From Perna viridis (Eukaryota), in the NCBI GenBank assembly GCA_037379345.1, contig CM074515.1, positions 10,292,001 through 10,356,000 on the forward strand: a stretch of 64,000 nucleotides of DNA. The letters run 5' to 3'. The notes below the pieces were generated by a model. It saw nothing but the letters and a program-made list of their open reading frames with translations. It was not told the DNA's origin and ran no database searches. How positions within the stretch are numbered: position 1 is the first letter of the stretch; each line of letters begins with the position of its first letter. Both the position numbers and the translations under genes were made by a program. This document shows positions 28,217 through 62,916 of this stretch, one piece after another.

Positions 28217-28825
28217 TAATATCATACAAAATATAACATATCAAACTGGGGAGGACGATTTCTTTATTTGAGTTGTTTTGCCCTGATCATGATCACTGCA
28301 GGTATAATTTAAAAAAAAAAAAAAAACACGAATTTTCAACAAAATTATCTCGCAGTGAAGCCCTTTTCAGCATAATTTGCGACTAACTTTTATGGGCCTA
28401 AAACGCTCTAACACCGGGAACTGCCGGGGGCTTCGTTCATTGTCCGCCACTGGGGCCTTGAACGGTCCTTAAGACCCCTTGCCGATTTTGTGTTTCCACT
28501 TCAAAGAAAGTCTGGCTACGAAATCGATAATCTTGAAATTTCATGGGTATATAGATCTCTTCGAGCAAAAGAGCCTAAGATCGGAGACCTGCAGTTAATT
28601 ACAGGTCTATGCTAAGATGTTGTCTGTTATTATTTTTTTTTATACTATTTAAGACCCAAATTCCTAAACTGTTGGAACCTAAACCCCAAAATTCTCAAAA
28701 ACCAAAAACCCTCATTTCCTGGGCAGGGAACCATAGGCCGAGAAATGATGGTTCTAATTTTGTTCAAGAATGACTTTTTCTTATAAGGTAATTAATTAAT
28801 GCAGTATTTCACGTTGAAGATGTTT

Positions 28826-39500: not shown

Positions 39501-42500
39501 TTTTTCTGATAAAGTTGCAAATCCATGAATTCAAGAATTCATGAACTGATAATTTTTCCCTAAACCATGAAAATTGGTACCAACAAATAAAAGTATGCAT
39601 TTAGTATGCATTTAGACAAAAGAAATGACATTTATACAATGAAGAAGAAAATTATTATTTATGACAGTTTTTTGGTACCTTAATCATAAAAGTTGGTCCA
39701 TTAAATCAATTCAGGAAGAAACCTTGTAGTTCAATTTCATAGAGTTGCATACAATTTCACTCAAGTTTTTGCAATGAAACTTGTCTTTTCCTTATTGCAA
39801 ATTCCTAAGTGGCTCAAGTCCAAACCCTAAAATCAATCAGATCCTTCCTTATGTGAAATGGCACCTTGTGGTAAAATTTCAAAGGGATCTTTACACTTTT
39901 ATTCAAGTTATTGTTTGGACATCAGGAATATAATTGTTTATGTCTCTCTTTTTGGCCAAAAATTCCTAAAAGATTTCAGTCACAACCCACTTGCCAATCC
40001 AATGCTCAGTAACCTTAGCCAAGGTTCCATAAATATCTCAAATTGAGAATTTCTTCAAATCTTGGATTTCAAGTAATCTGGTTCGTTATATTTTGAGCTG
40101 AGGAAGAATTTAAGGATTTTTATGAATTTGTACCCTGGTTGACCATAGTCCTTGTCATTCTCTATCCACATTTAAAAATGTCCTTTGATTGACTCTCATT
40201 TTACCTCATAGAAATATATTTTACGTGATTATAGAAACTCAGGGTCAAATGACAACTATAGGCAGGAAGAAGTACAACAAACATCTCCCTTTATTATTTC
40301 GTATTATTAACAAGATTATAAGTGGTTACGGAAGTCAGTTAAACTCTCAGTTAGGAACCTTACTTTTAATGTAAAATGTTTGTACTACTTCAATAAGTTA
40401 ACAACTGACATTCAATCATCAATAATAATATACATTTTGGTCACTCCGTACACTTAAATTTTATGAGTGAATAAAGGAAATAATTTGACTATAGAACATA
40501 TTTTTTATGAACTAAGGCTCAGTTTATTATACTATTCGCAAAGATAAAACCTACATCCTGTACTAATGTTTCCCCCTGATAAATTTCCTTGATTTTTATC
40601 AGTGCAATGACTTTACAGCAACTGTCATTCATTTTTAAAATAATTGGAAAAATAAATTAGAAAAACAGAAATAACAAATACCCTTGAAAAATAAAAAAAT
40701 AAAATAATAAAATCAGAAATATACAAGTATGATTCATATGGAAGAATTCTCCATAAATTTGAATGCAGAAAGATTATTACCAATGTTTGTATTCACATTA
40801 AAAATAACATACATAGTTAAAGTCCAAAATATAAATTTATCACACAAAACAGTAAAGGGGATTTCATCTTCTAATAAATCCACCAAATTATGAAAAAAAT
40901 TTCTAAAATATTTGACAGTAGTTTGAATGCTTGGTTGTGTAAATTTCCTTATAGGAGGAATAGACAACAGAACATGTATAGGGCATTGATGAAAAGTGAA
41001 TTATGATGAGTAGTACATCACAATCTAATGTGTCATTCATTCAAGCTTTCAACTTCTTCTGACTTCAGTGTCACTATGACCTCAATATGCAATGAACTTT
41101 ACAGATTTCAGAACAGAAAGCAAAGCATGAGTAAACTAGGATGTTTTATGTTTAAAATTATATACAGATGTGCTTGAAAAAAAAACCTGATATAAATAAT
41201 ATGCCGTAAGACTGGAGAACAGACTTACAGACACGACTTACTTATCATTGATGAGAGCTAACTGGTACTGAGGAATACAATCAAGTCTATTGCGTAAAAG
41301 TTTAAATGCTTCTGACTGAGGTAATAGCATCAGTAAACCATACAAACTTTTGATTAAATCTTGATTGTTCTGTGCATCCAGTAACTGTAATCTAAGATCT
41401 GGAATTGAAATGAGGCTTTTTAGATAAGTGTTAAAATCAAACAAGCTACAAGGAAATGATAGAATACTTAAGAGTTATAATGATAGAATGATAGTGGATA
41501 GGAAATCTGTCCTCCAACCTCTATTCACATATTTCTCTGGTGTTCCATCTCCATATGAATGGAAGGATAACATTAAAATATTACAAATGGACTTGAAATT
41601 AAAGATGGAAACAAAGATACATACATGTAACTTAGAAATACACAATATAAACTAATGGCAAAATGTTAGTATAAACAAATGGACATCATGGAAAAAAAGG
41701 CAAGCATTTGATTTTATGGAAGACTCCAATCCAATTTCTAATTACATATTTAAAATTTTTTTCTCTGTTTTTTTCTTTTCCTAAGCTACGATATACATCT
41801 ACAAAAATGAAATCCTACATGTACATGTTCAGTAAAATCCTACATGTACCTGTTCAGTAAAATCTTATCCTAGGAACCTGTAAGTAATTTCAACCTAAAG
41901 GACAAAATAATAAGATACATGTATCAAACAAATACTTACATGCAAATATAGGGGACTCAATCAATTGTACAAGTTTATCAATCTCCTTGAGGAAATCAAC
42001 AGTAATCTCCAGTTCACCACTGATTCACAAGTCAAAGAAATATAACAAATTTATCTCATCAGATTGTCTGTATATTCAATAAAAAACATATTTCATCAAA
42101 TTTCCTACCTAAATATCTAAGTTACATGTTACATGCTGAACTAGAACTGTGAGAGGCTCTAGAGATCCTAAATCGCTCATTTGGTCAAAAATAGTTTCTT
42201 TAGCCTTCTAAGGCTGGGTTCTTTACCCTACTGTAGTATTGCCACAAGAATCATTTAATCAATAGAGAACATCTTAATATCCCCCAGATTTCATTTTATA
42301 AAATAAATTTCTCAAAGTAATTTTTAACCCTTCAAAAACAATAGCTCCAACATTAATCAAAAGAGCAACATGGAAATTTTGGCATAGGCCTATCTCATCA
42401 TGCTGATCAGTTTTAATTTTTTGAAAATTGGTTTTCAAGTTATTTCCACAAATCCTTAATTTTTAGGAAAGTTTTGACAGATCAATAATCCCTACCCACA

Positions 42501-45500
42501 GATTGTAATTGACATCCTTACAAACATTTATGCTATGTTCGGGTATTATCCATCCTACTAGGAGTCTAAGAGAAGAAGATTTTCAAAGATGGAAATGAAA
42601 AATTCTGGAACAAAAATCCATTTCAGGACCAACAACTCATTTATCTGTTCACAGATCTTTCTGAAAATTTCAGCAAATATCAACTCCATTATGCTGAACA
42701 GTTTGATTTCCTGCCATATTTAAGCTAAACCCAATTATTTTTTAGTTATTTGCAAAATTCTGCAATTTGACCATTATGATCTATTTCTAGTAACAGAGGT
42801 CAGGTTTTTTAACTAAATCAAAAATCCCCACACAAAGATTGTTAAAGATGCCTTATGGAACATTCAAGCAAAGTTTGGTTACAATCTGTCCAGTAGTTTC
42901 AGAGGGGAATATCTTTAAAAAAGATTACAGACCATGATGACAGATGACTGAGGCAAAGCGATGACAAAAAGCTCACATATCTATTAGGCCAGGTGAGCTA
43001 AAAAGATATCACAAACTTTAACTTGGCTCCCTTAAACTGGATTATTTCTCCTTCAAAGCATCTAAGAATAATCTTTATCTTTAACGCATATCAGAATATG
43101 AAGCCAAACCTTTATACATGTTTATTTTTTAAAATCTTTGAGTAAGTTAGTTTGATTTAAACTTACATGTTACAAAAAATGGGAGGCATAATCTAAAACC
43201 CTGCAAAGTAACCTTAACTTGGTAACTGACTATAATAAGACAAACTTCAAAGAAAAAGATAATGAAATATCTTAAGACCAACTGACATCTGTGACAATTT
43301 CACAGTCAACTAAAAGGCTAATAGTTACAGTTTTCAGTCAAACCAAAGATGTCAAAGACTTAATACTAAATCATAGAGAACAATAACACAAGGGATTCAT
43401 AAATGTATCATTCTTTAAAAACTTCTATGCAATATTCATAATTCGAGGATTGATTTTAGTGACATAAAAGATACAATGACTGCAGTAGTTGACAAGCATG
43501 ACTGTAGTTCTGTGACAGAAAACATAAAGAGACTGTAGCTATAGGACTGTGACACCATGACATGTATAAGTTACAGAACAAAGAGCAGCTATCCTGAAAG
43601 TAAAAAAAATATATATTAGTATATCCTCCAATTGTTTTTTTTTGTAGGTTGAAAATTGTGTGTTTTTTTTGTTGTAAAATGGGGTGATTTATATTTTGTC
43701 TTAATCCTGGAATATACAGGCTAAAAACCACTAATTCCACTTTCCATAGGCTTCTATGCTAATTTCACAATATTCAATGGCTTCTCTGGACTTTACCTTA
43801 ACTTTAACCTGCAGAGGACTATATATCAGCATGATTCTACATATGTCAGCTCACAACCCTCAGAATGGCATGTGGGGTTAGCAGACTTGCAGTGCAGTAC
43901 TGGTCACCGGAAGTGAAGGGTCTATAAATAGCATGGGAAATCCCAGTGTTTTCACAAGATAGGGGTATATTTAAAAATCATTATGGAGATTAGGCTTCAC
44001 ATCACAAGAAGCAAAATGCACCTATAAAATGTACAGAAATGTTTTTCCTTTCAGAAACTGTTTCAATTTTTTAAATAAGATGAGAACTTTTTTCACAGCA
44101 CTATGAGGAACAGGGGTAATTTCTGCGTAGGACTATTTTTGCGTACGTTCCGAATGCTCATTGGTTGAATTGGTGGTCTGTAACCTAAAGAGTCACTTTT
44201 TGTCTTAGAAAAAATAAATAACTATACAGGTATCTTCCTACACACATACTGAATGCATTTGCAAAGTTTCAGTGAAATGTGACAAGCACTTTTTTAAATA
44301 TTTGATTTTTAAATATAGGGTAACCAAGTTGTGCGAGCAAAAAAGTGACAATATTCTACCATACTTAAATGCATTAAATATTTGCAAAGAACTTTTTCTG
44401 ACTTTTCAAATAAAAAATATCAATCACAACTTGTTTTTTAACAATATTAATGAAGAAATAGTTTTAAAAGTAATCATTTTCTGAGAAATTGGTCTATTTT
44501 TAAAAAATTATTTCTGACATGCCTCCCCCTTTTTCTTGATCACATGTCAAAAATCCTAAATCTTTAAATTTTCACAAAAGGTGATATATTTGGCTTTAAA
44601 TTTGTAAATACAGTGTTTTCACATTAAAACATGACCAGTAAAGGGCACCTAAAGCAAAAAAAGTACTCAATAATGGATTTTCCATGTTGCCATAGGGGAA
44701 TGCTGATATGGCCTTAACCGCAGTAATGAAAGTGAGTTTTTCCTCATTTCTAACCTAATTTTTGCTCAAATCTACACAAAACTTGATTTCAAGTGCTTAT
44801 TACCACCATATTTAGGTAAATATAGCCCTCAAAGTTTAATATTTGATATTTTTACTAACTTTTCTACACTTTTTACAAGATAGGACATAAAAATCAGCCA
44901 AAAAGACCAATTTTCAATAATTTGGACCTATAACTTAAAAAAATGCATATTTTGAAGGATTTTTGTAGTGTATTCCTCTCATGGCAAAGTTAACAAGATC
45001 TTCAAGTAGTTTAAAGCTATTTCAAAAAACTTTTCATTTTGTCATGGCTTCTACTTAAGGCTAAAAACCACTAATTCCACTTTCCATAGGCTTCTATGCT
45101 AATTTCACAATATTCAATGGCTTCTCTGGACTTTACCTTAACTTTAACCTGCAGAGGACTATATATCAGCATGATTCTACATATGTCAGCTCACAACCCT
45201 CAGAATGGCATGTGGGGTTAGCAGACTTGCAGTGCAGTACTGGTCACCGGAAGTGAAGGGTCTATAAATAGCATGGGAAATCCCAGTGTTTTCACAAGAT
45301 AGGGGTATATTTAAAAATCATTATGGAGATTAGGCTTCACATCACAAGAAGCAAAATGCACCTATAAAATGTACAGAAATGTTTTTCCTTTCAGAAACTG
45401 TTTCAATTTTTTAAATAAGATGAGAACTTTTTTCACAGCACTATGAGGAACAGGGGTAATTTCTGCGTAGGACTATTTTTGCGTACGTTCCGAATGCTCA

Positions 45501-48500
45501 TTGGTTGAATTGGTGGTCTGTAACCTACAACAGTCCCAAAACTCATCAGCAAAATTATGATGATTGGTCTGAAACTGATCAATGATCGATGACATAGCAA
45601 ATACAGCTACTTACAGGTAATGTACATGTATATACATGTATAAGCACAAGGAGGAATAACCCTAAATTTGTGGTGATAATAATTCATATGTTTGAATTAA
45701 TTTCCAAATATCCACCAAAATCACCACAAACTTTATGAGAGTTTTTTTTATGTCAAAGGAAAAGTAATGTGTTAAGTACATTTATCATTCCCCATTTTAC
45801 AGTTGGTAATAAGCAAACTCCAGCATGTAATCGATTAGTAAGTGGTTTCACAAGCTCACCTTAAATTTCATAAAGGTAACAACCCATAATTATAAATTGG
45901 GACGAAGAGTATCAAATAATACATTAACTGAAAGATACACAAAAAAATGACATAAGCTGCTATGTTCCTGACTTGGCACAGACACTTTAAAGTGAAATAT
46001 TGTGATAAATCAGGCTTTCTGGAATTGTGCATACAAGTATCAAATGGATAAAACAGTAGTAATCTCAGTATTAGACAAGAGGACTAGAGTAATGAAAAAA
46101 CACATCTATAATTATTTGTACCCAAAGTTATGGGGGGGGGGAGTAATCTAAGTTTATTACTTTTGGAAATGGCCAAGTGCGAGTTGAGACTACACGTGTA
46201 AGACAAGGTCACACATGCTTGTTTTAATTCCTTCTTAACCAATGAAACATCTTTAAGTGGCAGTGTCAAAGACATATTCAATACAAATGCAAGAGAAAAT
46301 TTGATGTCAGTGTATACTTTGTTTCCAGAAATGGTGGCGCTCACTATGAAACAAAATATATATTTTTCACAAAAGAAACAGATACATTTGTTGAAGAGCA
46401 ATGATTAGGGTTATATACACTCCACTCTTAAAAAGACATGAATTTCTCAAACTTGTGAAATGTAACCCAATCTTAAATCTTCACTCATGTAAGAACCTTT
46501 TAGACTTAAAATTTGTTCTGTAAATATAAACAACAATCTGACCTGTGAATTAAGATTTTTCAGTTGGATCCTCAAACCAAACAATTCTGTCGAGGTCAAT
46601 AGTATAGTGTTTAGTGTTTGTACCATCTTTTTAGCAAAATCTAGGTCATCTTCTTCTACAAGTATCTTGGAGAAGGACTGGAAAATATCCTCCGCATTCA
46701 ATAAATGGCACAACTGCCTGAAATAAATACAGATGCAGTTGAGACCAAAACAATCTTCAAAAAGAACCATCAAACAAAAGTGGACTTTATGTTTCTGGTA
46801 ATTAATACATAGCAAAATCATTGCATATTTTTCATAAGATACAGTTTTTCACATAATTGAATTTCTTCAATTGAGATATTGTCAATGCAGTAATTATTAA
46901 ATATTTACTATGTGATTTTTATTATCTACAAAATATAAGGATTTTTATAGTAGACAGGGGTAAATTTTGATTGGCTTTGGTCTGATGCTACCAAATAACA
47001 ACTTTTATTCCATAAACTCTCAATGTTTTACTTTGTTTTAGAAATCTGATGATGATTATCATAAACGATATGTATGGTTGGTGTAGTAAGAAAATGTAGA
47101 GAAAATCCATTCACATATAATAGAGATTTTGGCAATTAAAGCAGAAATTTTCACAAATTTCTAGAATCTAAATGTGAATTGTTTATCTTCAAACAATTAA
47201 AGCTTAAAATGCAGAATGTGATATTGAAGCTGAATGAACTGTATAATTATACCTTATAATAAAGTATTCTCTTTCTTTAGGCTCGGCAGATTGTTGATCC
47301 AGCTTAAACATGTGCAATAAACTAACCATAAACTTAGTAAAATATCTATTTAGTCCATGTTTAGATTGATATTCAACAGTCAATTTAACTCTAGGAACTC
47401 TCTGATCTTTTTTAGCAGCTGTACTCCTTGAATCAACTGAACGTCTTTTATTGTCCTTTTCTTTTTTATCTTTTCTATCGGGAGTTGCCTCCCTTTGTGG
47501 TTTATCTACTTGTTCCTCCTGTAGTGACTGTCCAGCAGGATTAGAAGAAATTTCAGCTAATGCTTCAAGGTCTAATAACACTACCTGTATAAAAGAGAAA
47601 CACAATGTTCATTATCCTATCCTTTAAGTCAAAGAAATTTTCTCTTCAATGTGAATTTACAATTCTTATTGAAAATTTGTCATTTTTGGTCAAAAAGATA
47701 TGTTTCTTAGTTACATCCCCTTGATTATTACAGTGAATCTGTCTTCTTCAGAATTGATGTTGCTTTCATCCTAATATTTTAAACTGCACAAAAACTAGAC
47801 TTCAGATAACTACCATATATCGATTACATTATGTAGAATCACACATAATGGTATAATATTTAATTCTATAAATTCTTCTTTAGGGAAATGTATCAAATGG
47901 CCTGTTCAATAACATTAATATTTCTTTGCGTATCTATGTTTATCTTCTGAAAAGAAAAGAATTTGTCATAATGCAGCTGTATACTTTTATTATTCATATT
48001 CATTGTCATTATTCAAATTTCAGAAAGGATGAAAGGATAACCATATTAGTAAATAAAACAGATTTCTATTCAGTTAATGTCGACATTGATGTTTTAAAAG
48101 TAAGACTGGAGATGAACCAAGTCTTTTTCTGTCTTTTCTTTTGGTCATTCAGCCATGGGAGTACATACATATCAGCCATGGGAATACATACATATCCATT
48201 ATATTGAAATCAATATATAAACTTTCTTTGAGAATATATTCTGAGTTAATGCCATACCTCCTCTGATTCATCAGTCAAGCTGTTTAGTAAGACTTGAAAT
48301 AATACTTCCATATTAAGGAACGTCTACAAAAATAAAAATATAAAAACATGCTAAAAGCCTAAGGATTACTCAAGTCAGGCACACATGTCAAGAAGTCTAC
48401 TTAAATATTCCACCTCCCACTTACTACAGTCAAAGTGCATCAATTCAGATATTGGATTGAAAACTTAGTAATTAGAAGACTACACAGGCAATATGATATG

Positions 48501-51500
48501 ATAATCATATGGTAATCATATGACAATTGTATGATATTTAACATATTATAGTCATATGATTATCATATGATTCTCATATGTTAATTTTGGCTTTAAAACA
48601 TGACTATCATATGTTTGTGAAAACATATGATTATCACATGATAATAATGTGATTATCATATGTAAACTGAAACATATGATTATTATATGGTGTATGGCAA
48701 ACCATACGATTCTCATGTGTTGCACATTTGCATGTGTACCCTGACATAAGATGTTCTATGATAAATAGTCAAATCTGTAACCATCAATCGTTTCCCCATT
48801 TTCTTCCAAAGTTTGTAGTATTGAACACTACATGTAAAAAGCCAATTCCACAAACAAATAAAATTTCCTGATAACTTAAATATTTTCCAAGTTTTCTCTT
48901 ATTAATATTTCAGCAATTCAGGAGTTAAATCCAAACTATTTCTGCATTCGTAGTTGTATAAGTCTGATTTGTACATGTGCTTTGTAGTTCATAAGTTGCA
49001 AAATCCAAATTTCACTACCAAAATCTGGGGTATAAAAATAATTAAAACCACTCCTACCTGAAATAAAATCTTTATAAATCTCAACGCAAGCACCTTAATT
49101 TTTTTCTTTCTAGCATGCACTTACTTTACTTGGTACTTTTTGTAAGAGATGATTAATCCAGTCTAGTGCAGCAATCTTGGACTGAAAATGTCCTTCCTCC
49201 AACATCTGACTTAAAACATTGATCACTTCCTTAACGTCTAACTGCACTGCAACCATGTCACTACTGTCAAAGTATAAAAAAAGCATGCATTTTCAAATTT
49301 GTTTTTTTAACTTGAAGGGAAACTTTTCAATTTTTACAAGTTCTGGACCCAAAACTGATATTAAACAATAATGCTGGTCTATTTTGCAATATTAACTACT
49401 GGACCCAAAGCTGATATTGACCAATAATGCTGGTCTATTTTGCCATATTAACTACTGGACCCAAAGCTGATATTGACCAATAATACTGGCCTATTTTGCC
49501 ATGTTAATTACCGGACCCAAAGCTGATATTGAACAATAATACTGGCCTATTTGGCTTGTTCAGGTGTGTCTTATTACCAGTGAAGTGTTACATTTAACTA
49601 TTGAAGGATTTTACTAGGACATTCACAACAGAAGATAGTTCATGAAACTCATTTTCCACTGTTTGGAAGAAGATTTGGCTTTTACAATTTAAGCTAGTCT
49701 CCTGTTGATTAGAAAGTTCTAAATGTGTACATTTTAATTGACAACATTAAGAAGTGTAAGGTTGATTTGAGTTGCTGAGTATTGTACCGCATAATTGTGG
49801 TAATGAAATTTTGTGTGTGTATAAATGAATGGCTGCTGCACTTACTTTGCCATGCTGACACTGTGCACCTCTTATCTTGTTTTTTTTCTATTTGAATGGA
49901 TTTTGGGCATGGACTTTGTCATTGGTTGACCAAAAGGAGACCTTCTTCTTATCCACAACATTTCTTCAACAACTGAATCGAATTTAATGAAACTTTCATA
50001 AATTCTTTACCAGAGGATGCCATTATGCACCTCTTATTTTGATTTTCCAAATGCATGACTTTTGGGGTTTCCTGTTACAAAACACGGAGTAAGTCATTGC
50101 TTGATAAAAGGGGACAAACTTCTAATCCACAACTCCTCTAAAACAGCTGAATAGAATTTGATGAAACTTCATCAAATTCTTTATCCATTGTGACATTCTA
50201 TATTTTTATTTTTGCACACATGTTTTTTACATTTGATACACAATGAAGTTCAACTCACATTCCTAATAAATATCTTAATGGATAGAATGAAGTACATTTT
50301 GTAATTAAAACAAATAACTATTTCTAAAAGAATAAAAATTCAAAGTGCCGATTTGACAAGGTCCCGATTTTACTTGGTCTAAGTTTCACCAAATGTTAAT
50401 TTTACTTGTTACTATGGTGCTTATTTGATCAGGTCCTGATAAACTTGGTCTTGGTGCCAAATTAACCAAAAGCACAGGTCAGTCTTACAACTAAACCCAA
50501 GTTTTCACATCAAAATGATGTGAGGTCTTATCGGTATCATTTTTTTATACAAACCTTGCCACCAATTAAAATGTCAAACCAATTGTAATTTCTACAGAAA
50601 ATGCATTCCACCTCTTAGCATTCTAATATGTCTCTTTAAAGTCTTATAGTCTACATAGTTCATATTATCACAAAAAAGGGGGCATTATGTAGTTGAAATG
50701 TTTAATATAAAGAAAAAATACCATAACAATGAAAACAGAAATAATGATACAATTGGGAATGGATTCATCAAGGTATTATTTGAATTTGGAATTACTTTGG
50801 ATTTAAGAAAAAAAAGCCCCAAAAAAATCATTTATTAATCTTACCTCTACTAAGGGGGTTAGTCATGACTGAGTCATGCTGTAATGACTATGGGGGTTAT
50901 TAAGTTGTTCATGCCTTTTGTTATCCAACTAACCTTATCTCTTAGCCATGCCATTAGAGTAATCCCCTAAGTAAGAGTTAGTTTTACACATTATTTTCAT
51001 TGTCATTTCCTAAATTCCAAAATGATTCAAAATTTAAATAATACCTTGTTATTCATACATATAGGAAATGAAATTGAACTCAAAATGTTTCTCTCCTGAA
51101 AATATATAAATAGCTTCTGCTGAAATTTTTCTAACTTACATAAGCTTTGCTTTGCTAGCCATGTTTAAGCCTTCACAAATTGCTGATAGAATAATTTTAT
51201 AAAATAATTTTACACACTTGCTGCTTCGGTTTGATGTACTAAAAGGGATAAAATATACTCCTACTTTTGACTGACTTTTGTTACCAAATAAAAGTACTTC
51301 ATTAAGTTTTTTAGCATTTAAATTTGTCCCCTGCAATTTACAATTCATATTAAATTATTGAAATGGAACCTAACTAAATATGCATGTCCTTAAGTACATT
51401 CATAAACTGTAATGTCTCATTCATGAACATATATCACCAGTAAAAAATTCTTATTTTAAATGGAAATTATGGTTAAGTTGGCTCTATTTATTACTCTAGT

Positions 51501-54500
51501 AGGAGAAAATAAAATCAACAATGCTCAAACCTGATTATTAAACTGTAAAATGATGACAGTATATGTCACAAAAAGAAAATGAATTGGTCATATAGCTTAT
51601 GAAAACAAGCTTCTATATAAGTTGTTATAGTTGGGTCTAAGACATTTTGTAAAATATGTACAAATTGTTAGGCAACATTCACTTTGCTTTTACAAGGATG
51701 GCCTATAAAAGTATGTTTTTCTAATCAAATGATTATTTGTATATTGTTAATTGTGAGTCTCTGTAATTTTGGAACTTTGCAGTCAACAGACCAACCTCCA
51801 TGTCACATGACTTTTTGGCAATGTAGTACATGTAATAGTGGTCCTCACATTTGCTTTTAACACAGCTTTCTGGTCATATTACACATCAGATGGATGTAAA
51901 CCCATGTTTCTTATACCATAAACAGCATGTAAAATTTTGATTTTTTTGTTTGCATAGTTTCCCTTTAAGCAACTAAATAATTTAAAAAGTTAGTTAAGTA
52001 TATAATCTTGGTATAGGAAACTTCTTATAATGCTTTATTTTTGTATTTTGTAATGCTTCCTAAATCCAAAACTTTCTGGAATGCCTGGTGGACAGATTTT
52101 GTAGTATCACTTTATATTTCTATGACTACTGAATTTTCATTTAGCAAGGGGCAAAATAAGAAATGTTTTGTTTAATGAGTAAGTAATTTTTAATTAACAG
52201 TATAGTAACATTTCATATTAACAACAACATAAGCTCTTATGAGCTTTTAAAACAACTTATACATAGAATGAATAGACACAAGACATACAAATATTAAAAT
52301 ATAAAAGCATGCAGACATACATAAATTGAATAAGACACACAAAGAAAATAAGCCATAGTCAATAACCAAGTTGAAGCAACATAAAGACTAGGCAAATAAA
52401 AATCATCTAAGAAAAATTGACATTATTTTTCAGAGCACTATCATACTGACCTTGCAGTTTCTATACTTGGAGGAGTTGTCTCCCCTTCATTGACCTGTGA
52501 TTTGTCTTGGTCCTTAGTCTTTGGTTCATACTCCCCAGGACTTGCAACTGTTGGTGTAGGTAAATCATCCTGCTCACATATCAATGTCTTCATTGCTGTG
52601 TTCAGCTTTCTAGCGGATTCTAGTACACTTATTTTAGTTAAGGACAAAAGTCTTTTCCAACAACATCAAAGCAAGGTAATTTATTTTCATTTCACTGTAT
52701 GAAGTATGTGCACTGAGGTAAGAAAATTTATTTATTTTCTAGGAAAAGTAGGGCAAAATATTTATTTTCAACTTTTTCAGGACCAGTCCCTGTTACAATA
52801 CTGTTCATTGAGAAGTTGGCGTCTTACATTTACTTTGGTCACTAAAACAAAATATTTTCAGCATACTGTAAATACAAAAATCACCGCTTGCATTATTATT
52901 GTCATTTTTTTTTTGTAAATATGTAATTTTTATGCTATTGAATATAAATAATTCAGCCACCATTTCACTAAAATTTTGTGATTACATCCTTCTCGCATTT
53001 TTAACAATACAAAAAACATTGCAATAACTTCTGAATTTACAACTTCATAGAGTGTTTCTAGAAAAAGCAGTGGACCCTTACCTTACCAGTGCACCTGGTC
53101 CATGCTCCAAGATTTTAGTGGAGTCAGAGTTGCCCTTTTACTTCTGTTACTTTGTATGTATTATTTTTGTTATTTTATGTTCTTTGTTGTGTTTGTATAT
53201 TTTCCATGTCTGGTCTTTGTCCCTGGATTACATTCTTTTGATTTCTGCTAGAATCTTTCATAAACAACATGTTTAAAAAATTGCTATGGTTACAAGAAAC
53301 ACTCAAAGATATGATACACAGTCATTAACAAAAGGATGATGTTTTCTGTTTAAGTTAATCCTTTCATTGTTATCACTGAGTTTAACACGGTTTTACCAGA
53401 CAAGAAATGACACACTGATACCTTTTATATTTAAAAAGGCCACCAACAAATTGCTGTGCAGTATACACATGAAGTTGCATGCCTTGCTGTGCTAGGTATA
53501 CCTTCACCAAATTAAGGAAGTTGGTAAATGACAGCACCAAAATAGCTTATAATACATGTCCCATGTATATAATGCCACATACCAAATTTGGATGTATGGA
53601 AACAGATGAATGCGTGGACAAGTAGAATCCAATACGTACTATAATTTCATTCCATGTCAGAACCTCAAAAGTGTAATCCTATATGTGTTTGATAAGAGCT
53701 GTATCATAATTTAAAACCCCTGATATTCTACTGTTATACTTTAAAATACTTAAACTATAAGGATACGGTTTGGGTGACTGATTGGTGAGACAAGGTAAAA
53801 CTGCTTTTAAAATTCCTTGAGTATGTGTTAACATTGTGCGACCAGCTTTTGAAACAAATACTGTTAACCATCTCATTGCTGTACACTGGATTATTTCATC
53901 TAAAACAATATGTCAAAGAGTTAATGATGAAAATGTTTTAAAATGGTATCTCCCATTCTAAGCTAGTGATTAAAAATGCATGTGACTTTTTAATCACTGG
54001 GGGGTGATTAAATTTCTGCAAGAGTATTCCTGCCAATTTACATTTCCGAGTTTTCAACAGATTTTGTGGGAGAAACAGATTCTCCTCCAATTCTTTCGAG
54101 AATTACAAGATTTCTCAAATCTCGGTATTTAAATTTGAGGCTTGTGGGTTGAAATCTAAAATATAACTACCAAGAATAGAGAAATCTTGCAATCCCCTCG
54201 AGATTGCTTTTATTTATGATTTATTTACACTGCTAATTTATGTCATAATCATTGGTCAAAATAGCAGATTTTTTTGGAATTTAACAAAGCCAGGAAATAT
54301 ATTACCCATTCCACATGAAATACAAGTGTCAGCGCTATTTCAGACCCATGTAATATTTAGATAGTCAGCAATCTCCTCGAGACTGCAGGAGAATCTATAA
54401 TTCATAATTTCACTAATTTCTAAATTTTTCAAGATATTCTACAACCTTCTATTCCCTTTTCTACTGAAATATTTGGTATTAGTCAATGTTATCAATGTTT

Positions 54501-57500
54501 GTAATACCTGCTTAATTTGAGTTTGTACAGTTTTCTTTAGAAGAATTGTTGAAACAATTATGTTAAGCTTAATATTATCATCATTTCACACCAGATGTCT
54601 GACTTAGAATTACTAACATAAAAATATCTGACTTACCATCACTATGACATTTCATGATAAGTATATTGGCCATTGCTTCATATCTTACATCAGTACCATT
54701 TTTGTCTATACTATTGAGGAAATCTTTTAAAACATTCTCACACCTTAAAAAAAACAGGGTAAGGGAAAATCTTTATTTACCTAATGTACATATATATGTG
54801 TAACATGGAGTTAGAAATAAGCACTGTTTCTCTGCACGCTGTGTGGTTTAATAGGCAGAAAGTAAACTATTTTTAAACAATATCCTCTATAAAGAGTGTA
54901 GTACACTGCAGCAATACTATAGGTACAAACAAGGGAAAAACTGTGTAAATAAATAATAATTGTTTTAAAAAATTGAACTTACATTTTTCTAATTTCTGGT
55001 TTTTTGTCACTGAGTATTGAAAACAGGCCATCTAGGATGTCGGGTAATAACACTAACATGTTGATGTCTGGAACAGCATCTAGAACAGCTATCTACAATA
55101 CAAGAAGAAATATATAGAGTTTTTATTAGGACTGAAAAGATGTGCCTTTAGAAACTGATTATATATTTCAAAGTAATCATTATCTAAGCTAGTGCCCCTT
55201 TGGCAACTTAGAGAGCCAAAAAAAATCCTTTCATACTCAACTGAGAAAAGTCATACAAATCCAGAAAGGTTGAGGTATGTTTACAGGTAAAGTAGACCCA
55301 CTTATTTTCCTGAAAATTGATGTTTGAATCACACCAAACTTTTAGCTGCGGAACAGAAGTATTAAACCTAAAATTTAATTGCTTTTATTTATGATTTATT
55401 TACACTGCGCATTTATGTCATAATCATTGGTCAAAATAGCAGATTTTTTGGAATTTAACAAAGCCAGGAAATATATTACCCATTCCACATGAAATACAAG
55501 TGTCAGCGCCATTTCAGACCCATGTAATATTTTGATAGTCAGTAATTCTGACGCATTTCGGTCTATTTTATCAGAATTCATGTAGTCTTGATCCTAAATG
55601 TATCATGCAGTGCAAGCTAGCATTAATTTTCTTGAAGCAATTGCCATTTCTTTAAATTTAGATGAATTGAGATATTTCATGCCATGATCCAGCTAAATAC
55701 CAACATCAATTAACATGAAATATTCAAATTTTTATTCAAATCTGGCTATTCGTCACAAATAATTGCTAGCTTGCACTGCACTAGATATGTAGGCTAAAGC
55801 ATATTTGCTTATATGTAGAATACTGTATAAAAAAGCATTAAGCAACGATTTCAGAAACATAATAATTGGTTCTTATCATGTTGACTAAAATCATCTTGAC
55901 AGTTAATGTCCTAGATTACGACTTTAGCGGAACCTTAAGTCTTGAACAAAAATGCAGATTGGTAACATTCTATAACCATATTTAGAAATTCAGCCTAGAA
56001 AGGGCCAAAATAAATCCCTAAGTGTACCGTATCCTTTGTTTAAAAAACGTAACCAACTAGCCATTATTTTAATGGCAACATTATTCAAAACAAATATTTG
56101 ATGAGGCTGTAGAAAATTAGTTGAAAGCATCTATATTTCATAAAGTTTTCAAACATTTTTTAAACCAAAATATTTATTTCATCCATTTTCTTATTCAAAA
56201 TTTCTAAATGTTTAGGGTCATATCCCCAAAAATCAATCTCAACATTCATCTGAGACCAATTGTTAAAATATGCTTTGACCCTTATTTCTTTAAAATGTTT
56301 TTGGGTCACAGTCCACAACCTAAAAAAAATTAAAAACAATTTTATAATTTAATTTCTAATCAATTTATGTCAAAATTCTGATTTGTCCCTTCATCAAGGC
56401 CATATTTAGTTGGTAATTATTTGAACTGTCGACTGCAGATCGATCAATGTTAATATTTCACAGTACCACGTTGGTTTATGGCAAATAACCTATCTTGCCC
56501 AGACAAGAAATAAACAGTAAAATTAAATTATTCAACTTTCTCTTATTTCCAGCGACTTTAACCATATCTTGATCCTTTGTGTAAATACAGATAACCTTAG
56601 TAGACACATGAGTTTTCCATTCTCATCAGATAATCTTAGTAGACATATCTGGATATGAGAAATCTTATAATATATTTGTTATAATGTAAAAAGATATATG
56701 TATTGTATTTGAACATTTTTTGGCATCAATTATGGATAACAAGTCCTCAAAAACAAAACAGTTCTCACTATTCTAATGCAACTGTAAAATTCATTAGTGA
56801 AAACTGCAATTAAAATCTTAAATACAATGTCTACTCATACTGTAGGTAAAATAACTGAGGAGACAATCAAAGCATTGATAACTTGAAATTCAAAAAATTA
56901 TCTAATTAAATTTAATATTACACTTGTTGTTGCATTAGAATTACAATTATTTATCAATATATCCTACCCATGACACAATGAACTGTCTAGCATAGGGATC
57001 TCTAGTATAAATTCTCTCACGAAGCAATGGGATGAATGCCTTCAGATCAAAGGAAGCACTCTCAGTCACTATATCCTTGAAATAAAGTAAGAGAGAAAAT
57101 TCTAAACTGTTTATTAAAAAACAATTTGGCCATTTCCTTTATCTGAACTAAGAATGTAAGACAATCTGATAATTATGAGAAAAATAACACTAAAACCTGT
57201 GTAGTTGCTTATTTTTATTAATTGTTTATTTCAAACCCATTTTCCAAATTGAAAAAATTCCTCTAACCCAACAAGATTTTTTGCAAGTCTACCAGCAGTT
57301 ATGTTCACATCAACTCTTTGTTATACATGTACTAGAAAGTCAATCCAAAATGTATTTTTATACTAACCTTTTCAAATCAACCAAGAACTTACCTGGGCAT
57401 AAATCTATTCAAAACTTACTTTTATAAGTCGATCTAGGACTTCAGCCCCATTTTTCACATTTACTTCAGTATCAGATACTAACTGTGTAATATAAGAAGT

Positions 57501-60500
57501 TACCCATGATTAAATCTCTAAAGTATTATGATATCATTGAGTCAAATAGTAGTCAAAGAATTATTTATGTAATAAATTACTATGATTAATCAATACAAAT
57601 CTTTTAGTCATTTGTCCTACAATACATGCAGAGGACAAAGCTTTTAACCTTCTCTCCTTCGGAAGGAAATCCCCTCACTTATCTCCCTCTAAAATTTTGC
57701 TTCTTAAGATTTATAATTGGACACTGGATGCAGTTTCATATACATGTAAACACACCAATTAATTATAAAAAAATTAATACATGTAACAACATTAGAACAA
57801 ATATTAATAGTAAAACAATTATGCTATTTTAGCTTAATTTGTTAATGCTGTTAAGTAACTAGAGGCTCAAGAGAGCCTGAATCACTCACCTGGTTAACCA
57901 TTTGCTTATTTGAAAAACTTGAGGAATGAGAGAGGCTAAGTTAAAATCAACTAAATTGTCAAATGCAGGAAATGCTTTTAATAGCATTTTCATGACCTGA
58001 ACCAGAATTTTGCTAAAGGCAACAATTTTTGAATTATCTTCTAAAATCTGTCTTCCAATCCCTAAGTTCCATTTTTATTTGCAAACTTTGAGAAGAAGAT
58101 TTTCAAAATTGCACATGCAAAAAATGCCTAAAAAAACTGTTTCAGGGGCCATAACCCCTACATCAGTTGACGAATCATTTTGAAACTTTCAGCATAGGTC
58201 CAACTCATGATGCTGAACAATATTAGCCTGCAGAAATTTGCTAAAGGCAACAGCTTTTGAGTTGTTTGCAAAAAACTGCCTTCAGACCCCTGTGTTCTAT
58301 TTTAAGTAACGACAACAACAGATGCCAAGTGATGGCATAAACTGACTTGGCCTTTGGCCAGGTGGGCCAAAAAACAAAATGTCGTATCAAAGTTTCAAAG
58401 TTTGACCACACTATATTCCCCCTTTGAGGAGTTAGTAATTGAAAGATGTTCTTCTTGGAGCCTTAAAAATGTTAAAATTGATTGATATGGCAGAGGATCC
58501 TATTTACTGATTTTTTTCAGGTTTGTCATCTACCATACAATTTATCATACCATTACTTAGTTATAATGACCTCTAATTTACTTTACCTTACTGACTCCAT
58601 CAAAGATGTGATTGAAGTATGGAAGAACAAATCCCCTACAGACTTTACAGATGTTGTATAGTGATTCACATGCATAGTATCTGACTCGGCTGTCCTGGTC
58701 TGTGAAAGAGGGTATCACAGGCTTTATCAAGTCCTCAACATATACACTTGCTTCCTGAAAAGGACTTGTGACTACTAATGATGGATTTGATTTATATTCA
58801 CCATGGGACATACACATTTTTATTTGCAAATCTGGCTTCAATAAAGTGAATGAAATGAATTAATTTAAATAAAACAGGATAAAATCCTCAAGATGATAAT
58901 AAACACAAATTTAAGATATCATATTTGAAGCACTGAGAGTCTGATTTCTTTTTGACATGAAGTTACTTCCAGAACTTATGGATTTAGTGCAGGCAAAATG
59001 ACCAAATAGTTCTGAATGAGAAAAAAAAACAAACTGAATTTAGAGTAAGCTAGTTTAATTTTATATCTGAATATATGGAAAAAAACTAGCCCACAGACAA
59101 GTCATCTCATCTACTAGAACTTGGGTAATCACCAATAAGGCTAATGTAATCCTCTAACAGGTTTAACCTGCCTAATATTACTAACTTTTCCTAATGCAAT
59201 AGCAGATGCAGCTAGACCAATAAATCCACCATTTCTGGCATTAGGATTGTGAGAGAGAGCAAAGTCATCCCCAAGAATCTTTAATACTCTCTTGATTTGG
59301 GATTTTTTCCCACTGCTAACCAGTTCCTTAACAATTCTAAAAAAAATATAAAAATAAAAATTACATTCTAAGTATTGAAAAAACATTAACACTCTTTATT
59401 TTTTCAATTATAGGATAAATGTCAGATGAAAATGGAAATGGCAACAAGCAAATATGTCAGTATCATTTAGAAAAGAAAATAAGGATCATTGATCCTTGAG
59501 GTTTTAAAGTTTGGATTTTCAAAAATAATCTTAAAACAAACAAAGAGATTAATGTGAATTAATCCTATTTCATAAGCTTTGGGGTTTTGAACTTGCATAT
59601 CATCTGGAGTATTCTGTTTTCCATGTCTGGTCTTTGTCCCTGGATTACATTCTTTTGATTACTGCTATAACCTTGGTTCCCTTGATTACTCTTTCAGTTT
59701 TCACCTGTCTCATATTATTCATCCCCAAAACTTGGAAGTATAACAGTTCTCCATGGATGGAGAACATACTTCACATAACCTGTGATTGTTAATAATGTGT
59801 ATCAAACAGACAAATTTGCATCAATTTGAAAAATGATTGCCTTTTCTGTCTTAGAAATGATCATCTTTGATTGGAATAATACAATCAGAGGTATATTTAT
59901 TTCAAGTTGGGTTAGGCTCTTGTGAAACAGAAGAGAATAATGGGCAAGTACATTAAACATTCAGATCATATTTGCAGTTCAATGAATTGTTTGATAAAGT
60001 TAGAAGAAGAACAAAAGAAAGAGAATACATTCAAGATGAGTGAAGTGTGGCAGGGACAGCCTACTTGACTTGTGTTGTAGCAGGTAGATTTAATTATTTC
60101 AATAGCCAGTTAATTGACTTGACTAAATTGTTAATTCTTTATCTGAATGGGTTCTGTCACTGGCTTGTCACTGAGAGGCCTATGATTTGATCCTTGGTGT
60201 CAATAGTATCATTGTGTGAGGCAAATCATATGCTCTCAAGTTACAAAATGTTTTCAATGATAAAAATAAATACTAAGCTAATTTTTTTTCATTTATTGGT
60301 TCTTGTAAGTGCCAATTTCTTATTTTATGCCAGGGAAATTTCTAGTTTTCAGCTGATTACTTAACAGCATCCAGTTTGGCTGAGAACTATCACTTAAAAA
60401 TCAATACATAATACTAAAGAGTAATCAAGGGAACCAAGGTTATAGCAGTAATCAAAAGAATGTAATCCAGGGACAAAGACCAGACATGGAAAACAGACAT

Positions 60501-62916
60501 ACACAATAAAGAACATAAAGTAACTAAAATCATACAAAGTGACAAAAGTAAATGAGCAACTCGGACTCCACTAAAAACTGGGAGCATGGACCAGGTGCAC
60601 CGGTAGGGTAAGCGTCCTCTGCTTTTCTAGAAACACCCGCCGAGTTGCTCATAAAAAGTCAAATCCGGGGTAGACAAATGAGGGAAGGAAAACTATGACC
60701 CATTGAATAAATCAGTTTTCATGGTGCTGATGGATACACCATAACAATCCACGATTTCATGATAACGACCATAAAACTTCTGTAGTGATGACTTCAATCT
60801 TGTAGCAACATAACCCTGTTCCAGAAGCCTATTTGTTAGAGTTCTAGCGCGATACAAAAAGTCTGCGTAGTTTCGGCAAGCTCTGGCATAACATATATGA
60901 GTTGTGATATGAACTCCATACGCAGGAGCCGAAGGGATGTTGCCACAGATGAAAGGAAAGTTGACAATTCTGAATGAAAAGTCATCACGTTTGTCGTAAA
61001 GTTTGGTCAATAGTTTTCATTTACCATCGATTTCTCAGTGTAGGTCAAGATATGAGGCTGACTTCACAGTGTCTGTAGTATCCTTCATCTCAAGTTCTTT
61101 TGGGTAGATGCGATGTATCAAATCCCCGAAATTAGGATTGTTTAAAGATAATACGTCATTTATATAGCAGAAACTGAGATTGAAGGAACTAGCCAAACGA
61201 TATTCTTTCTTTCTGATCAGAAAGTCAGCCTCATAAGAGTGAAGGAATAGGTCAGCAAGTAAGGGAGCACAATTTGTTCCCATTGGAATGCTGACCGTTT
61301 GTTGAAAAACACGTCCACCACACTGGACAAATATGTTGTCAATTAAAAATTCCAGCATTTTGTAAACATCTTCCTCTGTATATTTGGAAGATGATTTGGA
61401 ATTATTTCTTACAAAGTATGAGGAATCTCTACCAAGAACTATATATTTGTATCTAGGTGTACCATCTTTTTTGGAAAAACAATGATGTATAATGTTTTTA
61501 AGTCGGCATTTTAACTGAGTATGGGGAATAGAAGTATACAGTGTTGAAAAATCATGGGTTTTAATGCTATTATATTCAGATAATAGTCTTGAACTGATTG
61601 TCTCCAAAATATCTTTCGAATTTTTCAGGATCCACATTGAATTAATACCACTACGGGAGTAACAAGTGTTGTGGTAGGACTATAGACCCTCTTTGACAGT
61701 TGTGAGTATAGAAGTTAAAAGTTTGAAAGAGGTTTGGTGGTACATTTTGCAGATCCAGCTATGAAACGTTGTTTGTATGGATTCTTGTGAAGTTTAGGAA
61801 TCCAGTACATAGACGGTAAATCACAATCATTGTCCTTGGTAGAGAGACCAAAAGAGGATAGCACAGATTTATGGTTTTCCACAATCTCTTCTTTGGAGAG
61901 AGTGGTAGCAGTATAGGTCTTATCACTGCTATTATTTTCTACGTTTACCTCTGATAATAAACATTGGATATAAAACGTTTTGCAGACAAAAACAATGTTG
62001 TTTTGGGCTTTGTCTGCTGGTACGAAAACATATTTGTCATGTATAGTAGACAATGTTTTTGCTACATCGGGGTATTTGAAAACTGATGTAGCCTTGGCAC
62101 TCATTGACCTACTTAAAACTTTCATTCGTTTCAAAATTAAAGACCTCACGGCCTTTAAGCACTCTGACAGACAATCAATGTCTTCTTATTCTCGTTTTAT
62201 CCATTTTCTTGCATAGTCCTCGACGGCATCCATAAGAACTTTAAAGTTATAATCTCAATTTATGGAGCGTGGTTCACGGTACTTGGGACCTTTAGAAAGG
62301 ATATTACGTAGAGATTCGTTTTCGATAATGGTTAAATCTTCTGTAACGATGTGACCAGAAAGACCATATTTGAATGGAGAGGTTTTGCAAGAACAGTCAG
62401 GTGGTTTAGCCTTGAAGTCCTCAATCTCGAGGTTCTGCAATAGCCTTTTATAATTGAAAATTTTGGATGCGATGGGTGAAGTATAGGAATATGAAATAAT
62501 TGGTATGGATTTGTCTTTGAAATATGGGGGAATTTTGTTGGTAACATTTTCGTGAATGAGTATGTTAGCCAAATTAATTGCATCTATACCTTTGTTGACA
62601 AACGGTAGTGGAAGAAATGATCGTTTTTCTTCATCTTGACTTTTCACACAAACTGATTTAAAGAGTCTGTGGAAACCAATATCCAAAATGATGGCAACAA
62701 GTCTGTGTAATGATGAGGTGGGATCAGAAACAGGAGTGTCAAGACTTGTTTTGTAAAGGGAGTGTAGTAGAGTGAGAGGTATAGAATAAAAACTAGTAGT
62801 ATAGAATAAAAATACCTTTCAACTTCAATTGCCCCCGTTTTACGTTTCTCATAGAGTCTGTCACTTAGATTTTTTATGCATATTGGCGTTAGTGGTGCAA
62901 AGTCCTTCTCGTTCAT
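33450..62916 (-). CDS. VAC14: VAC14 (ArPIKfyve), scaffold of the PIKfyve/FIG4 complex; 17 coding exons, 2319 nt, 772 aa
   Basis: The N-terminus [30 protein letters not shown] segments ([25 protein letters not shown]) and the C-terminal Fig4-binding region ([36 protein letters not shown]) are all present. Exon lengths sum to one open frame with consistent phases. Confidence 0.97.
33669..33767. repeat. 35-bp tandem repeat, about 3 copies
   Basis: ccattacctgatgaactatataaggtattgaatga at 33669, 33704 and 33739. Confidence 0.85.
34454..35164. mobile_element. TACTGT..ACAGTA MITE (Tc1/mariner-like) interrupted by a HINE-like repeat (about 34614-35000)
   Basis: Termini tactgtg and cacagta; the inner segment begins aactaga and has duplicated caaggtca core repeats. 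Confidence 0.5.
41242..41398 (-). CDS. VAC14: VAC14 exon 16
   Basis: [42 protein letters not shown]. Confidence 0.95.
41940..42019 (-). CDS. VAC14: VAC14 exon 15
   Basis: [26 protein letters not shown]. Confidence 0.95.
42020..43474 (-). other. U12-type GT-AG intron 14 of VAC14
   Basis: Donor GTATCTTT. Branch-like TTTCTTTGAC at 42040-42031, close to the CAG. Confidence 0.8.
42139..43004 (+). mobile_element. Helentron-associated non-autonomous element (HINE-like)
   Basis: Starts aactag...gaggctc..gag..cct.aatcgctca and ends with a GAC-rich microsatellite remnant, an agctcac...gtgagct hairpin and an A-run. Related to 57857-58373. Confidence 0.65.
43475..43593 (-). CDS. VAC14: VAC14 exon 14 (ends at a U12-like donor)
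   Basis: [39 protein letters not shown], followed by GTATCTTT. Confidence 0.94.
43719..44185. repeat. Long terminal direct repeat, left copy
   Basis: Matches 45059-45525 at offset 1340. Confidence 0.95.
45059..45525. repeat. Long terminal direct repeat, right copy
   Basis: Matches 43719-44185. Confidence 0.95.
46543..46717 (-). CDS. VAC14: VAC14 exon 13
   Basis: [19 protein letters not shown]...[28 protein letters not shown]. Confidence 0.95.
47253..47584 (-). CDS. VAC14: VAC14 exon 12
   Basis: [18 protein letters not shown]...[13 protein letters not shown]...YFII. Confidence 0.92.
48258..48323 (-). CDS. VAC14: VAC14 exon 11
   Basis: [22 protein letters not shown]. Confidence 0.93.
48490..48720. 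repeat. Degenerate palindromic (ATCATATGATT)-like array
   Basis: Repeated CATATG/CACATG cores at roughly 11-bp spacing. Confidence 0.75.
49125..49263 (-). CDS. VAC14: VAC14 exon 10
   Basis: [21 protein letters not shown]...[19 protein letters not shown]. Confidence 0.92.
49343..49551. repeat. 56-bp minisatellite, about 3.7 copies
   Basis: Units start at 49343, 49399, 49455 and 49511 (ctggacccaaagctgatattga...). Confidence 0.9.
52451..52627 (-). CDS. VAC14: VAC14 exon 9
   Basis: [21 protein letters not shown]...SIETA; U12 branch site upstream, GTCAGT donor. Confidence 0.88.
52628..53766 (-). other. U12-type (minor spliceosome) GT-AG intron 8 of VAC14
   Basis: Donor GTATCCTT. Branch site TCCTTAAC at 52644-52637, about 10 nt from the AG. 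No polypyrimidine tract. Confidence 0.92.
53054..53257 (+). mobile_element. 3'UTR fragment of the Penelope-like family inside the U12 intron
   Basis: Contains gtttctagaaaaagcag...gtgcacctggtccatgctcc...ttccatgtctggtctttgtccctggattacattc. Confidence 0.85.
53767..53899 (-). CDS. VAC14: VAC14 exon 8 (ends at a U12 donor)
   Basis: [37 protein letters not shown]..., followed by GTATCCTT. Confidence 0.92.
54204..54367 (+). repeat. 164-bp local duplicate of about 55379-55541
   Basis: Near-identical direct copy about 1.2 kb away, flanked by the 15-bp duplication gcaatc(c/t)cctcgaga. Confidence 0.9.
54637..54743 (-). CDS. VAC14: VAC14 exon 7
   Basis: [35 protein letters not shown]. Confidence 0.93.
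54983..55092 (-). CDS. VAC14: VAC14 exon 6
   Basis: [36 protein letters not shown]. Confidence 0.95.
55606..55780. repeat. 17-bp perfect inverted repeat (MITE-like)
   Basis: tgcagtgcaagctagca ... tgctagcttgcactgca. Confidence 0.7.
56968..57075 (-). CDS. VAC14: VAC14 exon 5
   Basis: [36 protein letters not shown]. Confidence 0.95.
57420..57482 (-). CDS. VAC14: VAC14 exon 4
   Basis: [21 protein letters not shown]; CAG/GTAAGT boundaries. Confidence 0.95.
57857..58373 (+). mobile_element. HINE-like element, same family as 42139-43004
   Basis: Starts aactagaggctcaagagagcctgaatcactcacctgg, shares an internal core repeat, and ends with a tggcctttggcca hairpin. Confidence 0.65.
58587..58754 (-). 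CDS. VAC14: VAC14 exon 3
   Basis: [13 protein letters not shown]...[18 protein letters not shown]...FDGVSK. Confidence 0.95.
59186..59336 (-). CDS. VAC14: VAC14 exon 2
   Basis: [11 protein letters not shown]...[19 protein letters not shown]; AG/GT boundaries. Confidence 0.95.
59614..59694 (+). repeat. 81-bp exact inverted copy of the 3' tail of the neighbouring Penelope-like element
   Basis: Reverse complement of 60416-60496 with no mismatch seen. Confidence 0.93.
60416..62788 (-). mobile_element. 5'-truncated, degenerate Penelope-like retroelement (Naiad-like), RT pseudogene plus 3'UTR, in VAC14 intron 1
   Basis: Fragmented ORFs carry PLE RT motifs: [62 protein letters not shown] (mutated YIDD), [15 protein letters not shown]. 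Several stops and frameshifts. The ORF ends at 60693 with no C-terminal GIY-YIG domain. Confidence 0.9.
62816..62916 (-). CDS. VAC14: VAC14 exon 1
   Basis: [39 protein letters not shown] donor. Confidence 0.95.

Follow-up and report, generated by a model that had tools for sequence, protein, structure and literature searches.

A VAC14 intron of the mussel Perna viridis carries a probable non-autonomous KolobokP transposon that has its termini in common with a rare autonomous family

The window analysed here, a stretch of 64,000 nucleotides from the genome of the mytilid mussel Perna viridis (assembly GCA_037379345.1, contig CM074515.1, here C5, positions 10,292,001 to 10,356,000 of the forward strand), carries within an intron of the host gene VAC14 a 1,807-bp element made of a pair of long terminal direct repeats (LTDRs) around an internal segment (INT). 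Combining genome-wide motif counts, locus comparisons and protein searches, we identified this element, with a probability of about 0.9, as a monomer of a young, very abundant non-autonomous family of the KolobokP lineage. It is most probably mobilised in trans by a 4,165-bp autonomous KolobokP that is rare and has the same termini. The copy in the window is itself ordinary. For the mechanism of the known KolobokP lineage, this genome can serve as a practicable test case: its transposase/nuclease pair is intact and looks young, and it holds hundreds of excision junctions.

Results

Two minus-strand exons, one starting at 43593 and the other spanning 46543-46716, matched consecutive parts of PF11916 (Vac14_Fig4_bd; E 3e-13 and 8e-18). 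Since these VAC14 exons lie on both sides of the element, the latter is intronic, at 125 bp from an exon acceptor as read off the PF11916-matched exon, which is the distance that an earlier note on this DNA, made from the letters alone, had approximated. The element is an LTDR-INT-LTDR monomer bounded by a 4-bp target-site duplication (TSD), TACA (Table 1). Its LTDRs agree at 467 of 467 positions, and each of them begins with GG, ends with CC and has its own imperfect terminal inverted repeat (TIR) that matches at 17 of 22 positions when counted by hand. The 873-bp INT is non-coding: its longest stop-free frame (88 aa) lacks a methionine and its longest Met-started frame reaches 29 aa. No match was returned by the Pfam search of the 88-aa frame (above cut-off), by the Rfam search (E<=0.5) or by a plasmid search, and tblastx and blastx comparisons of the INT with local KolobokP loci and proteins revealed no coding remnant. 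The twin repeats, TIR, TSD and interior without recognisable open reading frame (ORF) described in the earlier note were all reproduced. Its comparison of the inner TAAA and TTAA with fossil target sites was adjusted: both tetramers are present, as family-fixed tips of the INT that also occur in the autonomous element.

At the scale of the 723-Mb genome, the first 20 bases of the LTDR had 5,685 exact matches and the last 20 bases 6,925, with none for the reversed-pattern controls. The number of starts against an empty control argues against chance or an assembly artefact, ruling out the single-locus or artefact outcome that the earlier note had named as a refutation. Junction patterns, counted from exact motifs and therefore lower bounds, amounted to 2,984 INT-LTDR, 3,106 LTDR-INT and 434 INT-INT (reversed controls 0), and about 2,700 LTDR starts have no recognisable INT end before them, which roughly caps the number of insertion loci. 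From the start, end and junction counts, we estimated that the family makes up about 0.8% of the genome, with one array on C1 exceeding 50 kb; its diversity (pi) is 1.1-1.5% (19 INTs, 32 LTDRs). Monomers, multimers, INT-INT joins and solo LTDRs with TSDs were all present among 30 fetched loci, the predicted solos being flanked by TCTA (L019), TATA (L023) and TAAA (L028), and the TSDs of other loci including TGTA, ATAA, TCTA, TATA, TAAA, TTAA, TGAA and some 5-6-mers. At L022 and at two of the autonomous copies described below (L151, L152), the right side carries TAAA, the INT tip, in place of a matching TSD, as if the element had been cut from a multimer. The INT-INT joins show that LTDRs are lost from multimers. 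Of the 100 such joins that head the list, roughly two thirds retain one 4-mer, about one fifth five bases, and three both tips (by eye), joins within arrays being non-independent copies.

These counts bear on a chance composite, in which two independent MITE-like (miniature inverted-repeat transposable element) insertions of 467 bp would have landed around host DNA. Such an origin could be suggested by the TIRs of the 467-bp unit and its existence as solos with TSDs; it is refuted by the recurrence of the INT after the LTDR at thousands of places and contradicted by the matching outer TACA pair, by inner 4-mers fixed in the family, and by other haplotypes that probably lack the unit from 43719 on, leaving it a negligible probability.

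The KolobokP lineage was published with 228 families by Kojima and Bao in 2022 (PMC9587614, to whose accessible parts all our statements on this study are limited). It is defined by an LTDR-INT-LTDR layout with LTDRs near 450 or 660 bp, each having short TIRs and RR..YY ends, and by TSDs that measure about 4 bp (reported range 3-7) and need not be TTAA. Autonomous members code for a DDD/E transposase that carries C/DxxH as well as two zinc fingers, a CCHC motif following the first D. The window family has this layout (467/873/467), with GG..CC ends, the 17/22 TIR and the TACA TSD, and displays solos, (LTDR-INT)n-LTDR multimers and INT-INT junctions losing 3-4 bp, bearing out the KolobokP-type architecture first proposed; the DDD/E transposase and His-Me nuclease are encoded by the autonomous partner L150, not by the window copy, which is thus non-autonomous as claimed. 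In LTDR class (~450 bp), RR..YY ends with a short TIR, TSD of ~4 bp, solos, multimers and INT-INT joins, it resembles published non-autonomous families, of which KolobokP-5N1_OwFu (1,797 bp, LTDR 468), KolobokP-2N1_BF (1,819 bp, LTDR 469) and KolobokP-N1_CorFlu (1,463 bp, LTDR 473) are comparable (PMC9587614). Its terminal 11-mers were absent from the four supplements of that study, save one unrelated 3' match, and Table S1 lists no mytilid family with a 467-bp LTDR; the maximum copy number in that table, 2,693, is below our 5,685 exact starts, although the counting rules differ. The element very probably represents a new non-autonomous family of a published lineage; Repbase or Dfam may already have an entry for this family.

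A terminal-repeat retrotransposon in miniature (TRIM) or large retrotransposon derivative (LARD-like element), whose twins would be long terminal repeats (LTRs) re-made by reverse transcription, could also account for an LTDR identity far higher within than between elements, and TRIMs are known to form repeat-sharing tandem arrays (discussion of PMC9587614). However, neither TG..CA termini nor a partner coding for reverse transcriptase (RT) was found, in agreement with the earlier rejection of retroviral LTRs, and this origin is very improbable.

Searching with a distant transposase query (P0124), by which alone the family surfaced, we recovered the foreseen long partner with the same termini. 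L150, L151 and L152 are monomers of 4,165 bp, each with LTDRs of 471 bp and an INT running from TAAA to TTAA, L151 and L152 differing from L150 at 3 and 8 of the 4,165 bases. The first 19 and last 18 bases of their LTDRs are those of the window LTDR. L150 encodes an intact 647-aa DDD/E transposase (PF20700, E 3e-48) and, antisense and downstream of it, a 124-aa His-Me protein (PF05551, E 5e-13), whose sole PDB match was I-PpoI (E 2e-4), in an alignment that covers the I-PpoI active-site segment. Residues D258, D361/D363, D383xxH386 and E528 of the transposase are in place (roles assigned by motif and conservation), as are a CCHC finger after the first D (C303/C318/H321/C325) and a second cysteine cluster (C457/C466/C473). 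Identity to other PF20700 proteins was 27-35%, and a by-eye N-terminal likeness to KolobokP-1_BaPl_1p suggests a putative place of the enzyme in the KolobokP clade.

This partner family is small, with 21 LTDR starts: it consists of three monomers, an array of 12 units and a pair of solos (L177, L178) with 4- and 5-bp TSDs, and its pi is 0.1-0.2%. Fifteen copies of its transposase are 99-100% identical, one of them split, and the next relative among the best 68 of 788 candidates is broken and only 77% identical; a decayed relative (L179) is present. The partner resembles KolobokP-1_BaPl of Bathymodiolus platifrons (4,169 bp, LTDR 470), the two being alike by eye, unaligned, in the LTDR 3' end, the INT tips and the transposase N-terminus; KolobokP-1_BaPl belongs to another species, has other termini, and comes with no listed non-autonomous derivative in PMC9587614. 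KolobokP families retrieved by PF05551, PF20700 and P0041 searches were also considered as partners and rejected: they are more abundant, and their LTDRs do not match.

Over their full length, the partner and window LTDRs are 66% identical (global score 342 against 13+/-16 for shuffles). Within this divergent background, five blocks are exact, namely the two termini plus three stretches of 16-21 bp in the interior, and none of 5,000 permutations yielded three internal exact runs of 16 bp or more. Judged from these sequences, mobilisation of the window element in trans by the L150 family is likely. A rival mobiliser would be a closer autonomous KolobokP parent, extinct or absent from the assembly. 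The LTDR divergence, the lack of INT homology to L150 and the decayed relative L179 speak for such a parent; the youth of both families, the retention of termini and three internal blocks despite LTDR divergence, and the different termini of the other KolobokP families found speak against it, making it an improbable alternative.

Recent mobility, also claimed in the earlier note, was examined by comparing assembled contigs from four sequencing runs over 42900-43780. The X9 contig passes from the flank into the LTDR without any difference (filled site). Those of X2 (sample S2, study P2) and X4 (S3, P1) match up to 43718, where the TSD ends, and then continue for 157 other letters each, with flanking single-nucleotide polymorphisms common to both; among the contigs listed for run X1, none crossed the site. 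X2 and X4 probably carry the empty site, and the insertion of the VAC14 copy appears to be so recent that other haplotypes lack it.

The identity of the twins, which the earlier note attributed to recent formation or homogenisation, may reflect the latter. Across 19 loci, paired LTDRs differed by a mean of 0.95 bases, whereas comparisons between units gave 4.5 for left-left, 4.8 for right-right and 4.6 for left-right, a likeness of paired LTDRs reached in 0 of 20,000 permutations; the nine monomer-like loci alone gave a paired mean of 1.0. With plain cut-and-paste, left LTDRs and right LTDRs should form lineages of their own, and as none were observed, LTDR pairs must be re-made, presumably via unequal crossover, conversion or circles, in agreement with the model of PMC9587614. 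Because this homogenisation is family-wide, twin identity gives no date for the insertion in the window, and this part of the earlier interpretation was adjusted.

The 19 loci also revealed variable bases at the INT tips. Position -6 holds all four bases (A6/G5/T7/C1, pi 0.73) and position +6 three (A14/G4/T1, pi 0.43), for a core pi of 0.011, none of 843 core windows reaching the 3' value and three the 5' value. In the KolobokP-1_MeMe listing of PMC9587614, INT tips are nearly constant by eye, and tip hypervariability is not general to KolobokP. The variable bases are possibly old subfamily markers; that they are repair scars or an escape from cutting is a guess. As a candidate I-PpoI site, the LTDR/INT junction agreed by hand at 7-10 of 15 bases, most of them the Kolobok hallmark, and was rejected as too weak.

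LTDRs were also found directly beside other LTDRs. We counted 65 head-to-tail LTDR-spacer-LTDR joins at 14 loci, with spacers of 4-9 bp, one tail-to-tail join and no head-to-head join, for an expectation of about 0.1 under random insertion. The spacer equals the outer TSD at L161, L164 and L165, and one or both INT tips at L163, L167, L168, L170, L172 and L175, one such INT-tip-spacer unit being amplified about 40-fold on C6; at L162 and L174, the second element lies 4-5 bp off with its own TSD. Across the spacer, the LTDR differs by 3-21 bases at 11 of 13 compared loci (0-1 at L168, 1 at L170; the partial L173 was left out), which indicates that most came from elsewhere. The main text of PMC9587614 contains neither 'LTDR-LTDR' nor 'head-to-tail' in its accessible parts, yet a few KolobokP-1_MeMe rows of its Figure S3 display head-to-tail flanks by eye, so that the structure was already in the published raw data.

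Table 1. Coordinates of the element, its subdivisions and the flanking host exons in the window.
Feature	Position	Strand	Basis or remark
Left TSD, TACA	43715..43718	.	X2 and X4 contigs depart from the window at 43718
Left LTDR, 467 bp, GG..CC, own imperfect TIR 17/22	43719..44185	+	5,685 exact starts, 6,925 exact ends genome-wide
Left terminus, 19 bp, same as autonomous partner's	43719..43737	+	Sequence comparison
Internal block 1, 21 bp, exact in autonomous LTDR (66% identical overall); candidate site for transposase or nuclease	43792..43812	+	Permutation test; function inferred
Internal block 2, 21 bp, exact in autonomous LTDR; right-TIR-like (by eye)	43874..43894	+	Sequence comparison
Internal block 3, 11+16 bp, common to autonomous LTDR and (by eye) KolobokP-1_BaPl	44124..44151	+	
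Right terminus, 18 bp, same as autonomous partner's	44168..44185	+	Sequence comparison
Non-coding INT, 873 bp, TAAA...TTAA	44186..45058	+	ORF, Pfam and Rfam checks
Variable spot +5..+7, INT 5' tip (pi 0.43 at +6)	44190..44192	+	19 loci
Hypervariable spot -8..-5, INT 3' tip (at -6, pi 0.73 with each of the four bases present)	45051..45054	+	19 loci
Right LTDR, identical to left; 3 non-consensus bases common to both	45059..45525	+	
Right TSD, TACA	45526..45529	.	
Host VAC14 exon downstream of insertion (far end approximate)	43477..43593	-	
Host VAC14 exon upstream of insertion (ends approximate)	46543..46716	-	

Discussion

Under the scenario that we favour, the transposase of the rare autonomous family would pair any left end with any right end, so that it could excise a complete monomer, a lone LTDR or part of a multimer. 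Excision would leave 4-nt staggered ends, as suggested by INT-INT joins that keep one tip, a one-base-shifted merge of the two, or both, and reinsertion would mostly target T..A 4-6-mers. Recombination or repair between LTDRs, by unequal crossover or circles, would build the multimers and keep paired LTDRs alike. The His-Me nuclease may provoke this recombination, as Kojima and Bao proposed (PMC9587614); according to the accessible part of a 2026 review (PMC13565253), the nuclease-driven unequal-crossover model awaits experimental confirmation.

Several observations weigh against this scenario or parts of it. Flanks do not match at some insertions (L022, L030, L032, L151, L152), and the empty site in X2 and X4 was placed by breakpoint, not read letter by letter. 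About half of the 19 homogenisation loci are multimers, and all were chosen, non-randomly, for closeness to the window copy or odd junctions. Concerning the partner, the protein searches scored the best 68 of 788 candidates, its LTDRs are 34% diverged from those of the window element, and mobilisation in trans is deduced from common ends only. The two INTs are alike at their tips only (5' local score 103 against a maximum of 87 in 30 shuffles; 3' local score 61 against a shuffle mean of 56), and the window INT is not recognisable as a clear deletion derivative of the present partner INT.

The 14 head-to-tail loci against about 0.1 expected, the differences between LTDRs across spacers, the INT-tip spacers and the homogenisation of paired LTDRs led us to consider a more specific, tentative extension. 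The KolobokP transposase might insert LTDRs beside existing LTDR ends in one orientation, in an IS911/IS26-like manner, and, with circles of LTDR or LTDR-INT, rebuild the twins; either the transposase or the His-Me nuclease would recut the inner junctions, and the INT-tip variants, 6 bp in, would be scars or escape alleles at a nuclease site. We regard this extension as doubtful: inverted joins may be unstable, open chromatin or repeat clustering may play a part, and P elements are known to undergo double insertion (PMC5932611).

Tandem dimers of the P element and hobo, formed by double insertion (McGurk and Barbash 2018, PMC5932611), are likewise head-to-tail with one-TSD spacing and can seed satellite arrays. 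They have been put down to insertion hot spots, whereas the target 4-mer of the mussel family is very common; some second copies in the mussel have a TSD of their own at a distance of 4-5 bp, and INT tips form some of the spacers. Bacterial copy-out/paste-in insertion sequences (IS911, ISCth4; PMC7780238) display similar TIR-spacer-TIR junctions, with one end attacking next to another, and IS26 pseudo-composites have a similar composite-like layout. However, the transposase families differ, and the mussel family is known from genomic junctions alone, with no circle or figure-eight seen.

The non-autonomous family is about 270 times more numerous than its partner, and the 34% divergence between their LTDRs footprints five short cis blocks. 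With an intact partner, footprinted cis blocks and end-adjacent insertions, the mechanism of KolobokP becomes approachable. Effects on the host include satellite-like arrays and intronic presence/absence polymorphisms, e.g. in VAC14.

Further observations

At least five KolobokP families coexist in the genome, including a PeVi-1-like one that carries the KolobokP-1_PeVi LTDR start; together with Mytilus proteins among the transposase matches, this start points to a mytilid host. An autonomous family with a 452-bp LTDR, a 680-aa transposase and a His-Me frame of ~160 aa forms arrays of dozens of intact units at C8:44.29-44.43 Mb and C15:25.73-25.89 and 26.48-26.65 Mb (L074-L120, L136), the period being 4,428 bp with the LTDR and 3,971 bp without it. 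A further autonomous family has an LTDR of ~470 bp, a 706-aa open frame and a period of ~3,739 bp (L141-L149, L153-L160). At C2:60.46-60.53 Mb (L066, L067, L073), matches to the His-Me ORF recur every ~920 bp, apparently as a nuclease-only tandem array.

Regarding the window family, copies at L167 and L173 are nested in the LTDR of another copy, around position 204-210, in a TATA-like run, and an INT-LTDR piece without left LTDR lies in the region where INT and LTDR of another KolobokP family meet (L130:5341-6702; also L129). On C1:0.57-0.63 Mb and C11:36.7-37.26 Mb (L181), copies of the LTDR (98%, with changes in the first bases) and of an unrelated 1,301-bp unit alternate over 181 junctions. 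We rejected this spacer as captured cargo, as it is also tandem without LTDR and older relatives (85-96%) share the head-to-tail join; insertion of a solo LTDR into a pre-existing 1,301-bp satellite is more likely than a new cargo capture.

Elsewhere in the window, many VAC14-like exons lie on the minus strand over 41247-59395, three of them matched to PF11916, and fragments resembling the RT of non-LTR retrotransposons were noted by eye at 60693-62818 (minus and plus frames), 22815-23486 and 28035-28286.

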